DNA from: a virus
Taxonomy: Duplodnaviria > Caudoviricetes
IMG/VR virus record: IMGVR_UViG_3300042257_000126
Location: 9,570 to 73,569 of that record
Reading direction: 5' to 3' (one strand)
DNA: 64,000 nucleotides
The notes beneath the pieces were generated by a model. That model worked only from the letters and a program-made list of their open reading frames with translations, was not told where the DNA came from and made no database searches. The first letter of the stretch is position 1, and each line of letters begins with the position of its first letter. Shown here piece by piece: positions 58,912 through 64,000 of the stretch. The position numbers were made by a program, and so were the translations under genes.

Positions 58912-59718
58912 GGGTGGGGCAGTAAAGGCGTACATAATGGCTGACACAAAGCATGGATTCTTATTAAGGGCGTACGTCGAGGTAAGTGAACTCTAAGATG
59001 CAATGAGCCGGGTGTTTAACATAAAAAAATTTTAATTTTGCGAAGCCGGGTAGTCACTTTCTGTTTCTATTTTCTGCATGAATTAAAAAAAAGTGATTCC
59101 GATTTTTCCCTCCTGATTCCAGAAAAGAAAGTATAGGAATGACAATGGTTTTAGATTGATTCCTGTTAAAAATTCGCTGCTTTGGTTGTACCTGCCTGAA
59201 AAACAAATATAGTACATAGTATAACCTTGCAATTATCTTTCATTACACAGCCTAAAACACAGCAATGACAAAGGATTTAACTCACACAACAACCAGCTAA
59301 AATCTTTCTACTTAACTTAATATGAATTATAAGACAAGCACACCTGTAAGGCCTGCAAATAAAGCGGTTTTGTTGTGGTGTTGGTCCCTGTTTGAATGGA
59401 GATCTTCTGTTAGGTGCTTTCATTTGTAGCCACAGGGGGAAATTTGTCGTTTTGAATGTACTTTACTCACGTTCATTTTTTGTCTGGTTTATTCGCTGGT
59501 ATATTTTTAGCTTGTCCCTCCGGGTTTTATTGTTTCGGTTATTCTTTTATTGTTTTCTTTATATATGTTTTTGCCTTTAAATGATGATAAAACACGCGAT
59601 CTGGTTATACATGTTGTACAACATAAAAAAAAACTTGCATGATTGAAAAATGTTGTCAATCTTTGTTGCACAAATTTAATGTTTAATTTAAAAATTAGTA
59701 CGATGAAAAAAGTAACAG

Positions 59719-59755
59719 GTTTCAATCCTTGTTTTGCTGGAATCAGGTCTGGGAG
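59719..59755 (-). CRISPR. solitary CRISPR-repeat-like unit (no array)
   Basis: 37 nt GTTTCAATCCTTGTTTTGCTGGAATCAGGTCTGGGAG; the reverse complement ends in ATTGAAAC. Confidence 0.5.
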
Positions 59756-59803
59756 GAGCAGGGCAGCCACAAATTTTTATTCATTAATTTAATTTTTATC
59801 ATT

Positions 59804-59965
59804 ATGAGAACGATAGAAAAAGACGGCAAATTTGTTGCCGAAAAAAAAGAAAACGCAGGTAGATATACCTACCTGAAAACCAATGTATTTGGCAGGAAAG
59901 TCCGCTATAATGCGGATGGAACAATTGCAGAACTCTGGCCTGCAAAAAGAAGATTGACAAATTAG
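59804..59965 (+). CDS. small early protein
   Basis: MRTIEKDGK..., after a leader shared with the 60830 gene. Confidence 0.6.
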   Translation: MRTIEKDGKFVAEKKENAGRYTYLKTNVFGRKVRYNADGTIAELWPAKRRLTN

Positions 59966-59984
59966 TTTCGTCAGTCTTCTTCCC

Positions 59985-60034
59985 GGCTGCAAGGTAGGCC
60001 TTTTTACTCTGTTCGATTCAGAGGCAGCCACAAA
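59985..60034 (+). ncRNA. tRNA-like minimal element
   Basis: GGCTGC/GCAGCC acceptor-like stem stacked on a CTCTG-TTCGATT-CAGAG T-arm, then ACAAA; no anticodon arm. Confidence 0.6.
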
Positions 60035-60149
60035 TGGCAACGCAGCAAACTGCGGGTAAATTTTTAAAAAAACAAATTATGAAAACTTTAATTTTGACAA
60101 AACAGGAATTGGATAGCCTACCCAAAGAAGTCCAAGACCAGATTATGAA
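60023..60149 (+). repeat. direct repeat, copy 1
   Basis: Identical to 63874-64000. Confidence 0.95.
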
Positions 60150-60570
60150 CGTGTATAATGCACGCAGTTCTGAAATTTCCGAATTAAAAAGCCGGATTAA
60201 AAGCCTTCCCTGTATGGTTGTGTCTTACCGTTCCGACCACAACACCATTGAAGATACCCGGAATGATAAAGAAAACTTGACTTTCAGAATTTGGGAAAAA
60301 ACAGCAGGAGAAGAATGGGGTAACAATGCCGGACATGAATTTCAGTTCAGGGTTGGACGGAAGTATATCCGCATGGATATTTGGTCGTGGGCAACAAACC
60401 GAAGTGATTATGACTGTGGGTCACACTACATTTCAGTATCAAAACTCTCTGAAATTCTGGATTTGCTTGAAGAAGCATATAGCCAAGACGAAGAAGGGGA
60501 AGTCGAAAAAGACAGATTGTTGTCAATTGCCTGCTCCAGGGTTGAAAACTTAATGCCGTCTTATTATTAA
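60079..60570 (+). CDS. early hypothetical protein
   Basis: Start moved to MKTLILTK, after an A-rich leader. Confidence 0.7.
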   Translation: MKTLILTKQELDSLPKEVQDQIMNVYNARSSEISELKSRIKSLPCMVVSYRSDHNTIEDTRNDKENLTFRIWEKTAGEEWGNNAGHEFQFRVGRKYIRMDIWSWATNRSDYDCGSHYISVSKLSEILDLLEEAYSQDEEGEVEKDRLLSIACSRVENLMPSYY

Positions 60571-60757
60571 TTTTAACGCCCCGGATTGGTTCTCGCAAAA
60601 CCTTTCCGGGGTAAAAAATTTAATGATGGAAATAGCAAAACAAAGAATTTGGGACATAGCCGAAAGAGAGGGACTGTCCGACATTGTGATCGGGTACGGC
60701 GTGGATCGTGTTTGGGAACTGATGAAAGCGATGTTTTAGAAATCATTTAACAAAACA

Positions 60758-60800
60758 GGCTGAATCCGTTACCGGGTGATCGGAGCCCGGCAACCACAAA
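60758..60800 (+). ncRNA. pseudoknotted tRNA-like element, copy 1
   Basis: GGCTG-AA-TCCG-TTA-CCGGG-TGATCGGAG-CCCGG-CAACC-ACAAA; covaries with the 63843 copy. Confidence 0.65.
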
Positions 60801-60829
60801 TTTTATTTATTAATTTAATTTATATCATT

Positions 60830-62080: not shown

Positions 62081-62141
62081 CAAACGTTTGCGCAATTCAA
62101 AAACATTATTTACATTTACAAAAACTTTAAATTATTTTAAG

Positions 62142-62558
62142 ATGAAAACTAAAGAAGAAATTTATCAATCAGCACATGACTTTTTGAACACTTTAAAAGT
62201 TGACATTGATCTCCCTTATTATGTGGATTTAGAAAACGTTGATTTTTCAGACGCGTTTAACGACATTTGTCAAATGGTTGAAGACGGGAACGGATTTGAT
62301 TGTGAAGTGATTTATTATTCCGATGCTATTGAATATCTGGCAGAGAATGATCCATCTTTGCGCGAAAGTTGCGAGCTTGCCGCAGAAATGGGATATGAAG
62401 CCGGGAACCTGAACAGCGAATTATTGGCAAGTCTTTTAAAAAGCCAGAATGTTAGGACTGAGTTTCAGGAATTGGAAGACGAAATAAACACGTTTTTTGA
62501 GGATTTACAAGACCAGTTAGACGAATTGGAAGAAGAAGAAGACGAAGAAGATTTTTAG
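62142..62558 (+). CDS. Ocr-like acidic DNA-mimic candidate
   Basis: Highly acidic and helical; VIYYSDAIEYLA; tail DELEEEEDEEDF. Confidence 0.6.
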   Translation: MKTKEEIYQSAHDFLNTLKVDIDLPYYVDLENVDFSDAFNDICQMVEDGNGFDCEVIYYSDAIEYLAENDPSLRESCELAAEMGYEAGNLNSELLASLLKSQNVRTEFQELEDEINTFFEDLQDQLDELEEEEDEEDF

Positions 62559-62622
62559 CAGTTGCAAGTCTGCATAAATTGCGAGCAGTCCCGGTTAATC
62601 CGGGATTAAACAAACTAAAAAT
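62551..62622 (+). ncRNA. twister ribozyme, type P3 permutation
   Basis: P3 ATTTTTA/TAAAAAT; P4 GCAG/CTGC with L4 TTGCAAGT; linker ATAAA; GA-GCA; P1 GTCCCGG/CCGGGAT; T^AA; pseudoknots TGC/GCA and AC/GT. Confidence 0.85.
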
Positions 62623-62643
62623 TTTAATTTAAAAATAATTATC

Positions 62644-62961
62644 ATGGAATTAAAAAAAGAATGGAACCGCGAGGACTTTATAAAAGTTGATCGCAAATTA
62701 TGCCAGTACTTTGGTGGCAAAAGTTTTAAAAATCATCGTGGTGAAATGGAGTATTGCCCGCGTCCAATTGCAAAACTTGAAATGGTTTTGGGACTGCCTT
62801 ACACGTCCTCCGGGATATTTGCCTGTTATTCCTTGTCGTGTAATACTAATTTGTTTCACGATGAAAAGTATTATTATGACTATGCAGCAATGACAAAAAA
62901 CGGGGATGTTGTTTTATTGCTCAGTGACGGAGAAGAAAACGAAAAACGGATTGTTATTTAG
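62644..62961 (+). CDS. early hypothetical protein
   Basis: 105-aa ORF directly after the ribozyme. Confidence 0.7.
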   Translation: MELKKEWNREDFIKVDRKLCQYFGGKSFKNHRGEMEYCPRPIAKLEMVLGLPYTSSGIFACYSLSCNTNLFHDEKYYYDYAAMTKNGDVVLLLSDGEENEKRIVI

Positions 62962-63198
62962 CCGTTTTAAGCCATTATTTTATTTAATTAATACATTTTA
63001 TCAACTCACGCGGGAAAGTCTGTTAAAACAGCCGAAACCGCGTTTAAAAAGCAAAATTATGAAGAAACTATTTCCAGATTTTGATTTACAGGAAACAAGA
63101 CCATGTAAGAAAGATGCAGAACTTGTGCAAACATGGCAGTACAGAACAGAGTTAAGAAGAGATAATTTTAAAGTAGGAAAATTTAAAACATTTTAATC

Positions 63199-63543
63199 AT
63201 GGAAACAGAAAATAATAAACTTATTGCTCAATTTATGGGTGCAAGAATCGGTGGTACTGGCGTTGTCCACTTTCCAGACGGCAATAAGTATCATATTGAC
63301 TATAAAAAATTGCCAACAAAAGGAGTTTACTACCATTCGGATTGGAATTGGCTCATGCCGGTAGTACAAAAGATTGAAAATTTAGGGTACAATGTGAATA
63401 TTAGCGGTATAACCTGTTCAGTTAGCAGACTTTTGGAAAAAGAAACTATTGTACAGTGGGTTTGTGGCAATAGGAATGACAAAATAGGACTTGTTTACAA
63501 AACAGTAGTTGAATTTATAAACTGGTACAATGAAAACAATTAA
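63199..63543 (+). CDS. phage ABA-sandwich/BC1872-like protein
   Basis: NNKLIAQFMG...YHSDWNWLMPVVQKIE. Confidence 0.7.
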   Translation: METENNKLIAQFMGARIGGTGVVHFPDGNKYHIDYKKLPTKGVYYHSDWNWLMPVVQKIENLGYNVNISGITCSVSRLLEKETIVQWVCGNRNDKIGLVYKTVVEFINWYNENN

Positions 63544-63630
63544 ATTCATTTTAGCCGTGTTTCTGGCAACGTTGGCCGGGATTGGTTTGTATTGGTTTTT
63601 GGGATTGTTGTTAATGCAAATTTTGTACTA

Positions 63631-63843
63631 ATGAAAACATTCCAACTATCTGAATCCGGTTTAGAGGTTAAAATCTTCTGGACAATGACAAACCGGGACA
63701 TGAAAAAAGCAATTGAAAATGAAGCTGAATTGCAGAAGTTTCCGTTGAACGAGTCAGCGCGTGAATATCTCAAAGGACTTGACAATAACGACATTTTTGT
63801 CGAAACAGACGAAGAGTTTACAGTTTATTTTAATTATTTATAG
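63631..63843 (+). CDS. small early protein
   Basis: Start moved to MKTFQLSE. Confidence 0.6.
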   Translation: MKTFQLSESGLEVKIFWTMTNRDMKKAIENEAELQKFPLNESAREYLKGLDNNDIFVETDEEFTVYFNYL

Positions 63844-63885
63844 GCTGAATCCGTAACCCTGTGACCGGAGCAGGGCAGCCACAAA
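63843..63885 (+). ncRNA. pseudoknotted tRNA-like element, copy 2
   Basis: GGCTG-AA-TCCG-TAA-CCCTG-TGACCGGAG-CAGGG-CAGCC-ACAAA. Confidence 0.65.
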
Positions 63886-64000
63886 TGGCAACGCAGCAAA
63901 CTGCGGGTAAATTTTTAAAAAAACAAATTATGAAAACTTTAATTTTGACAAAACAGGAATTGGATAGCCTACCCAAAGAAGTCCAAGACCAGATTATGAA
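63874..64000 (+). repeat. direct repeat, copy 2 (includes the start of a second MKTLILTK gene at 63930)
   Basis: Identical to 60023-60149; runs to the window edge. Confidence 0.95.

Follow-up and report, generated by a model that had tools for sequence, protein, structure and literature searches.

How are the small genes of a phage operon set apart from one another at the RNA level? The question is raised by the right-hand end of the 64,000-nucleotide (nt) stretch of virus DNA analysed here (the window), which comprises bases 9570-73569 of one 73,569-base contig and ends where the contig ends. From position 59804 onwards small genes were read in a row on the plus strand, twelve of them complete and a thirteenth with its start only. 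An earlier note had proposed that the transcript of this row is cut into single-gene mRNAs at structured junction elements by a ribozyme and by host RNases P, Z and III. We put the chance that the genes are separated by ribozyme self-cleavage together with host tRNA-processing enzymes at about one in two. Small gene cassettes would then be separated by interchangeable RNA punctuation modules, each placed between the stop codon of the upstream gene and an unstructured A/U-rich leader of ca. 33-48 nt. The module would be a twister-P3 ribozyme, a miniature tRNA mimic, or a variant of this mimic whose elbow may be kept in place by a pseudoknot of four base pairs (bp). Host RNase P would cut the 5' side of the mimics and the host tRNA 3'-end enzyme their 3' side. 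After these cuts the downstream cistron would be free and have a defined leader, and the upstream RNA would keep a folded 3' end, as with the ribozyme. Each cleavage event is predicted, from structures, their conservation, their positions and a trailer match that can be read directly.

By our count a structured element precedes 8 of the 13 gene starts. The statement in the earlier note that most junctions carry a compact structured element holds for these eight, with the elements lying where it had placed them, and not for the remaining five starts: three of these overlap or abut the upstream gene, one follows an 11-nt junction and one is preceded by a promoter-like motif only. The A/U-rich leaders in front of the gene starts form direct-repeat families.

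Ribozyme and tRNA-like elements in a common slot

A twister-P3 ribozyme (RF03154) was located on the plus strand at 62551-62622. The Rfam covariance model was matched over positions 1-73 of 73 with a score of 74.2 bits, well above the curated gathering score of 39.9 bits, which bears out the twister of the earlier note. It is the sole ribozyme match to Rfam in the window. The first helix overlaps the stop codon at 62556-62558. When the U-A step that we take to be the twister cleavage site is mapped on the Rfam alignment, the predicted cut falls between U62607 and A62608, 36 nt before the ATG at 62644. Three relatives of the phage in IMG/VR (L001, L002 and L003) each possess a twister-P3 match of 41.8 bits at a gene junction, ca. 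320 nt upstream of a pseudoknot-type element (see below) on the same strand. The loose-end consensus at 62601 from run X1 shows a twister variant at 62594-62601 with a different loop and with both bases of the top pair in the long hairpin changed; as read, this would be natural covariation inside the ribozyme. The search with Infernal against Rfam that the earlier note had recommended gave no RAGATH, hatchet, pistol, hammerhead or hepatitis delta virus-like match at E<=10 in 59400-64000, and none of these was found at E<=1 in the related loci L001-L007.

The plus-strand element at 59985-60034 folds as a tRNA mimic. It consists of a 6-bp acceptor stem, a D-like hairpin with GG, and a 5-bp T stem with the loop UUCGAUU, followed by A-CAAA. 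The T stem stacks on the 3' strand of the acceptor stem and an anticodon arm is absent. In tRNA, nucleotides of the T loop and the GG of the D loop together form the elbow; the mimic thus displays the features of a t-element-type look-alike, i.e. an acceptor stem stacked on a T stem, the T-loop consensus and the elbow partner. ARAGORN made no tRNA call on 59985-60034, the only tRNAs that it reported in the window being at 3335-3406 and 3412-3485, and the Rfam tRNA model (RF00005) gave no match at E<=10 in 59400-64000.

Independent detection of the mimic came from a covariance model (R1) that was trained on five sequences of a gut-phage family only, with the window element left out. R1 matched 59985-60034 with 40.2 bits (E 5.6e-8 in 241,262 bases) and, beyond the window, two elements in L001, two in L002 and one in L003. 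Covariation was examined on a model-fitted alignment of nine distinct sequences, a fit to structure that favours the fold. In this alignment 99.2% of 133 cells pair, 11 of the 16 pairs change on both sides, and none of 500 shuffles reached any of the measures. Sliding the partner by 1-3 columns lowered pairing to 30-47%. In view of the effect size and the independent detection we consider the fold convincing despite the structure-fitted alignment. The T loops across the mimics read UUCGAUU or UUCAAUU(UA), and GG is present in every D-like loop. Two alignments of the mimics made with MAFFT (A1 and A2) were structurally wrong and were discarded. The tRNA-like element of the earlier note has therefore become a conserved structure, present in at least three phage lineages and recovered by a model built without it.

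To what extent does the mimic occur elsewhere? Scanning IMG/VR for the T arm and tail gave 49 loci, of which 36 belong to the gut-phage family, two are in L001 and L002, and 11 are unrelated; as judged by eye, four of these 11 are coding-like and the others are tRNA genes or unclear. The 36 family members (within L009-L055) have the same architecture with different stem sequences. In this family the mimic lies directly upstream of a gene whose product starts with MKELKK or similar. Four gut-phage loci were scanned with Rfam and none gave any match, mimic or ribozyme, at E<=0.5. A further model (R3) revealed no new mimic in 454,075 bases, its weaker matches being ordinary tRNA genes or pattern-selected sequences, and nothing in the genome of Tangfeifania diversioriginum (150 of 1397 candidates scored), the lineage to which the CRISPR repeat discussed below points. 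In a more distant relative, L005, an acceptor-plus-T-arm-like fold ending in CAAACC was noted at 10130-10182 and three clustered T-arm-like hairpins with a weak transfer-messenger RNA match (17.4 bits) at 10375-10559. The same locus has a match to Flavo-1 RNA on the minus strand at 4534-4608 (38.3 bits, cut-off 42).

Two more plus-strand elements, at 60758-60800 and 63843-63885, were found by repeat comparison and are read as pseudoknot-type variants of the mimic. The first G of the second element is the last base of the upstream stop codon. The two 43-nt elements are 84% alike over the 45-nt repeat pair 60757-60801/63842-63886, so both pseudoknot sites of the earlier note are present, with the pairing itself a prediction. 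The acceptor (outer) stem and the tail are in common with the tRNA mimic. The inner 6-bp helix stacks on the outer 3' strand, and CGGA in the 7-nt loop can pair with UCCG in the 5' linker in all three distinct copies. These three sequences comprise the two in the window and one that is common to L001 and L002; L003 1621-1663 is identical to the element at 63843-63885. Two pairs of the inner helix (helix B) are changed on both sides, and the outer stem of the 60758 element contains one C-A mismatch. A model for these elements (R2) yielded no new member in 511,963 bases, and among 26 new loci from a relaxed pattern none was seen by eye to have an A/U-rich leader following it or likeness to the element. 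We infer that the pseudoknot-type element is a clade-specific variant of the mimic, with a predicted short pseudoknot in place of the elbow contact.

The elements are connected by a shared tail. The motif GCARCCACAAA occurs at four sites (59763, 60024, 60790 and 63875) against 0.10 expected, a number reached in none of 100 shuffles, and all four copies finish in GCARCC-ACAAA. For comparison with the 3' trailers of host tRNAs, 34 distinct tRNA genes of T. diversioriginum (L085-L114, G001) were used. The base directly after the discriminator (position 74) is C in 34 of the 34 genes. CCA is encoded in four, 13 trailers start with CAA, and CAAA is the commonest four-mer (6 of 34). After the phage's own genes for tRNA-Met and tRNA-Thr the next base is C too, and CCA is not encoded. 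We know of no earlier description of C74 as a lineage-wide rule for tRNA 3' trailers. Judged by its letters, A-CAAA reads as a discriminator plus a host-type pre-tRNA trailer, and this equality with the trailer of the host lineage is the best indirect argument that the host tRNA 3'-end machinery would act on the mimics.

By our count the predicted cuts would leave leaders of 34, 48, 33, 48 and 36 nt before the ATGs at 59804, 60079, 60830, 63930 and 62644, respectively. Cistron punctuation is favoured because the twister and the mimics occupy the same slot, with similar leaders of 33-48 nt.

A solitary CRISPR repeat in the first junction

The first junction of the row is built differently. What the earlier note had called a CRISPR-repeat-like unit fused to a junction element is a real CRISPR repeat at 59719-59755, and the fusion is present as well; its proposed role as a processing site falls away since the repeat is antisense to the operon. 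The 37-mer matches Rfam CRISPR-DR7 on the minus strand, which is the CRISPR RNA (crRNA) sense, with 27.9 bits and E 0.018, under the cut-off of 37. Its first 26 nt are an exact repeat that is present in 26 copies in an array of T. diversioriginum with spacers of 34-37 nt. This array adjoins cas3, cas6b, cas1, cas2 and cas4, which identifies the system as type I-B. An IS200-like transposase gene is found within the cas row of this locus (L008 5876-6331).

Four observations agree on the orientation: in the Tangfeifania locus the cas genes are on the opposite strand, a leader-like A/T-rich stretch lies beside cas4, three variant repeats occur at the far end of the array, and the sense repeat finishes in ATTGAAAC, which we take to be the usual ending. 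The crRNA sense is therefore the reverse complement of the phage plus strand, and the repeat is not a Cas6b site in the operon transcript.

The window contains one copy of the repeat, also with up to three mismatches allowed, where a CRISPR array would have at least two repeats with spacers. A 1,867-nt contig from run X2 spans 58216-60082 with 0 differences and contigs from run X1 also cover the repeat. Since these DNA contigs carry it in phage context, the repeat is not an assembly artefact. Contigs with a repeat-spacer-repeat arrangement at least 90% like the 37-mer were found in run X7 (at least four) and run X1 (one), so arrays with this repeat co-occur with the phage. Neither the 26 Tangfeifania spacers tested nor the spacers of two arrays from metagenomes gave a convincing match to the phage (at best 21/23, 16/16 and 18/19 nt). 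No IMG/VR contig contains the 26-nt core. Among JGI metagenome records three contain it, two as arrays and one as a lone copy where the contig ends, and none contains the whole 37-mer.

On the plus strand the repeat passes without a gap into the 3' half of a pseudoknot-type element (GGAGCAGGGCAGCC) with the tail ACAAA, at 59755-59773 (repeat family D11). Positions 59755-59774 are 100% identical to 63867-63886, and the repeat ends exactly where this identity begins. The fused structure looks like a recombination product. A plus-strand frame of 29 codons, 59703-59792, with a typical leader and ATG (direct-repeat family D1), runs through the CRISPR repeat and is probably the remnant of a replaced cassette. 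Contigs of run X1 continue with a different sequence after 59709 (loose ends). The start of the repeat on the operon strand, 59719-59729 (GGUUUCAAUCC), resembles 60758-60768 (GGCUGAAUCC), which may reflect microhomology that aided the fusion or chance.

From its sequence the unit is best described as a captured solitary repeat, possibly an anti-CRISPR. It may be inert, act as an RNA transcribed from the other strand in the manner of the RNA anti-CRISPRs (Racrs) considered below, or be part of an antisense RNA. The minus strand at 59824-59875, within the first plus-strand gene, carries a terminator-like hairpin (two overlapping calls) and a second hairpin; these would end antisense transcription before the CRISPR repeat.

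Cleavage, insulation or exchange

Other junction structures listed in the earlier note were hairpins at 60578, 61410 and 63008, of which the first and the last proved stable. The internal-loop hairpin at 60578-60612 (plus strand, 8 + 4 bp) has a z score of -4.24 (none of 200 shuffles folds as stably), and its outer stem recurs in a hairpin at L002 8555-8582. For the plus-strand hairpin at 63008-63043, in which the loop includes an inner hairpin and AGCCGAAACC, the z score is -2.60 (4 of 200 shuffles as stable). It has no Rfam match and has in common with DUF805b RNA only AGCCGAAACC and the closing stem, the 3' UAGGC being absent. The site at 61410 could not be upheld as a processing-junction hairpin. 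The plus-strand segment 61408-61440, which includes AGCCGAAACC and UAGGCA, is DUF805b-like; an internal promoter-like site directly precedes it, the ATG at 61460 follows 19 nt further on, and the fold of 61395-61450 is no more stable than shuffles (z +0.14). Its score with the Rfam model of DUF805b (RF02914) is 15.3 bits (E 1.3), below the cut-off of 35.6; the segment aligns well with a true DUF805b RNA in L004 (45 bits), which is located 17 nt before its ATG.

RNase III cuts T7 early mRNA into cistrons at folded junction elements, and a site of this type needs a duplex that extends over about two helical turns. With ca. 12 bp at 60578 and ca. 11 bp at 63008, the hairpins are short for RNase III, and the proposed RNase III substrates are thus unlikely. 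The best-supported elements are tRNA-like or self-cleaving, in contrast to the long duplexes of T7. We treat the CRISPR repeat, the DUF805b-like element and the plain hairpins as separate items that are probably not cut.

Transcription signals also bear on how much cutting the row would need. A perfect 14-bp palindrome (ATGTTGTACAACAT) with operator-like character is located at 59611-59624, upstream of the first rightward genes. The pattern ATGTTNTNNAACAT occurs at six distinct sites in the window (10 matches on both strands) against 0.17 expected; palindromes of the form ATGTTnTnnAACAT are at 3263, 51159, 51440, 56461, 59611 and 61361, the last (61361-61374) being the second one in the operon region. 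To judge from this pattern the palindrome is probably the binding site of a phage regulator. A similar sequence precedes a promoter-like motif at L002 10040-10062. Promoter-like motifs were read at 59666, 61374 and 62085, with similar ones near the contig start. The first is in a putative promoter-like stretch on the plus strand (59662-59700) with TTGCACAAATT, an exact motif that on its own is not above chance (1 match, 0.42 expected), and the promoter that had been placed at 59658 lacks consensus support. On the same strand, 61361-61405 combines the palindrome with TTGCACAATTC and TAATCTTTG and matches what we take to be the Bacteroidota -33/-7 consensus, and the junction at 62085-62141 has a promoter-like motif (TTTGCGCAATTCAAA) and a leader only. 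A sigma-70 scan (19 sites, 14.7 expected) was uninformative, this being the wrong promoter type for Bacteroidota. The three promoter-like motifs and the palindrome at 59611 suggest that there is probably more than one transcription unit.

Several observations weigh against separation of the genes by cleavage. With three promoter-like sites inside the region, not every cistron needs cutting. Three junction folds are no more stable than shuffles (z -0.22, -0.80 and +0.14). A 3' RCCA aids bacterial RNase P, and this sequence is absent from the mimics. The four pseudoknot pairs are invariant in the three distinct copies, and 60 of 500 shuffles reach the covariation observed for this element; its strict pattern retrieved only L001-L003 and the relaxed scan added no member. 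Conservation of ACAAA outside the window is a circular argument because ACAAA was contained in every search pattern and model. The gut-phage loci have one mimic each, with no known ribozyme nearby in the four loci scanned (E<=0.5), and R3 found no mimic in record G005, which holds L005, the relative whose match to the 61460 protein has the highest identity. The single RNA run (X17) contributed only contig pieces in the region (60317-60651 and 61480-61720), the ends of which are not readable.

The same elements might remain uncut and serve as folded insulators or stabilisers in a polycistronic RNA, by keeping the leaders unpaired from upstream sequence, by blocking exonucleases, or by pausing ribosomes or polymerase. 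Every element is followed by an A/U-rich leader that has no Shine-Dalgarno sequence, the hairpins at 60578 and 63008 are stable yet unlike known nuclease sites, and the DUF805b-like element follows a promoter-like motif at a distance from its ATG close to that of the L004 member, all of which would suit such a function. We nevertheless regard insulation without cutting as unlikely: unless it cleaves, a twister whose catalytic core is complete (74.2 bits) is difficult to account for, and the mimic copies features that are read by enzymes (the T loop, the GG, and a discriminator with a host-type trailer), which an insulator would not need.

Cleavage of the RNA must also be weighed against a role of the elements in the DNA. 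The 127 nt at 60023-60149 are repeated exactly at the contig end (63874-64000, plus strand), starting at GGCAGCCACAAA. The sequences to the left of this repeat differ, being the T arm in one copy and the pseudoknot type in the other. The length of 127 nt and the place at the contig end suggest that the assembler stopped at an unresolved repeat. The leader 59772-59810 is 90% identical to 60798-60836. Leader type 1 follows the repeat fusion and the 60758 element, and leader type 2 follows the tRNA mimic and the 63843 element; type 2 contains a 5-bp plus-strand hairpin, noted among terminator-like calls and by folding, at 60041-60054 and again at 63892-63905. DNA contigs of runs X7, X1 and X2 have a different leader after position 63886, and other contig joints connect 62624 to 63843 or skip single genes (62648 to 62963; 63192 to 63530). 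Most of the joints have short sides (21-37 nt) at 90% likeness and may stem from other organisms or repeats, and they were counted as hints only. Homology between copies starts or stops exactly at the shared motif, which fits shuffling and agrees with the suggestion in the earlier note that the motif is a crossover point. Because the shared motifs mark homology borders between cassettes, they probably act as crossover points in addition to their predicted role in RNA.

A stronger version would have the elements act mainly as cassette borders at which co-infecting phages exchange early genes by homologous or site-specific recombination, in the manner of the promoter-stem-loop cassettes of T4-type phages, with the RNA folds secondary. 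The borders at the shared motif, the contig that ends in this very repeat and the alternative contig joints speak for it. In the same direction, the elements do not go with individual genes: matches in the loci of relatives were obtained for only 4 of the 12 window proteins, and reading the sequence upstream of the L002 counterparts of 60623, 60830 and 61186 revealed no matching element. These three counterparts were also considered as cases of the same gene with different element types across phages, and provided no informative contrast. Against exchange as the main function, the both-side pair changes across lineages and the invariant T loop indicate selection on a folded RNA, most joints are short-sided, and no integrase was found among ten neighbouring proteins scanned. 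We consider it improbable. An integron-like cassette array was rejected, given the lack of an integrase in the same scan and the heterogeneous elements.

A combined scenario, which we hold to be similarly doubtful, adds counter-defence to punctuation and exchange. Here the interchangeable modules of Bacteroidota phages, among them a new family of mimics without an anticodon arm, would cut early transcripts into mRNAs of one gene each with standard leaders and double as crossover points, and in this phage the first module would have been rebuilt around an antisense copy of the host type I-B repeat. The copy of the repeat in the early transcript would then pair with the repeats of host pre-crRNA and disable CRISPR immunity. 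Least probable of all, the mimics could be decoys for host factors that bind the acceptor/T-arm region of tRNA (tRNA-targeting defence nucleases, nucleotidyl-transferase toxins, the CCA-adding enzyme or modification enzymes), for which the faithful elbow and acceptor features, the missing anticodon arm and the likely early expression of the region, where counter-defence genes are common, could be cited, but the constant placement between stop codon and leader and the ribozyme in the same slot would go unexplained and no defence or counter-defence protein was recognised among the scanned proteins of the region.

Gene row, host and relation to known systems

The twelve complete small genes, read as open reading frames on the plus strand, are 59804-59965, 60079-60570, 60623-60739, 60830-61174, 61186-61371, 61460-62080, 62142-62558, 62644-62961, 63059-63196, 63199-63543, 63530-63631 and 63631-63843; the thirteenth starts at 63930 on the same strand and is cut by the contig end. 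Ten of these genes were included in protein scans, with 63059-63196, 63530-63631 and the cut 63930 frame left out. No Pfam family scored above its cut-off in these ten; gene 61186 gave one weak match to DUF7533 (22.3 bits, cut-off 27). PHROG matches were obtained for 61460 (phrog_10310, phrog_5162 and phrog_15286) and 62644 (phrog_4874), exclusively to families without known function. Upstream of the gene row are a Dam-like methyltransferase, a primase, a protein with a DnaA C-terminal helix-turn-helix and a T5orf172 protein. A blastn search with 59400-64000 against deposited phages gave no match. Most likely the region is a variable early-type stretch of a phage of a Bacteroidota host, and this host is probably a relative of Tangfeifania. 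At the other end of the contig, bases 1-60 (L007) contain a hairpin GCCGTG...CACGGC, with TGCACAATT in the loop, followed by ACAAAC. Plus-strand genes run on from this hairpin and the variable region thus probably crosses the contig break.

Among phage systems, the promoter-stem-loop cassettes of T4-type phages, in which short shared regulatory modules flank variable small genes, offer one comparison; here tRNA mimics and a twister are found between protein genes instead of stem-loops with promoters. The twister itself does not differ structurally from type P3 (RF03154), and what is new is its position, a junction between cistrons in a slot that tRNA mimics also fill. The DUF805b RNA is listed in Rfam as cis-regulatory. 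The segment 61408-61440 has AGCCGAAA, the closing stem and the 3' UAGGCA in common with the L004 member, and differs from the family by its low score; the 63008 element is without the 3' part. The term 'DUF805' has 0 occurrences in the main text of PMC5737381.

Close in principle are plant mitochondrial t-elements and the tRNAs that punctuate transcripts in animal mitochondria, for which excerpts of two papers describe that tRNAs or look-alikes set mRNA ends via RNase P and RNase Z (PMC1920247, PMC3790967). Alike are the partial tRNA look-alikes between coding regions. Different, relative to those excerpts, are the phage setting, the lack of an anticodon arm, the host-type C74-AAA trailer, cleavage that is predicted, and a slot that a ribozyme and a pseudoknotted variant also occupy. 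That small ribozymes join tRNA processing in phages is illustrated by theta ribozymes adjacent to phage tRNAs, according to excerpts of PMC10879173; in contrast to that case, no ribozyme trims real tRNAs here. Word searches of main texts in the open-access literature returned no description of tRNA mimics at phage gene junctions.

The captured repeat is best compared with Racrs, solitary repeat units of phages (PMC10651486, excerpts). As in the examples excerpted there, a single CRISPR repeat is present in a viral genome that lacks cas genes, near a predicted promoter. In contrast to them, the crRNA sense is opposite to the operon and the repeat is fused to half a junction element, and it is known from sequence alone. 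The words 'orientation', 'antisense' and 'I-B' are absent from the main text of that paper (PMC10651486), and an antisense RNA anti-CRISPR mechanism was not found there.

Which role small ribozymes such as twister play in phages and bacteria is a standing question. With a twister in the same slot as mimics that are apparently built for host tRNA enzymes, the proposal that a ribozyme separates cistrons becomes directly testable. The locus can also be viewed as a natural counterpart of the operon insulators used in engineering, i.e. ribozymes, tRNA spacers and CRISPR-repeat sites. The captured type I-B repeat links the phage to a host lineage and raises the possibility of an RNA-based counter-defence. 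Beyond this phage, the tRNA mimic may be a widespread, unannotated class of RNA, since the scans yielded no Rfam 15 match for it and it occurs in 36 gut-phage loci, in relatives of the phage and in the window.

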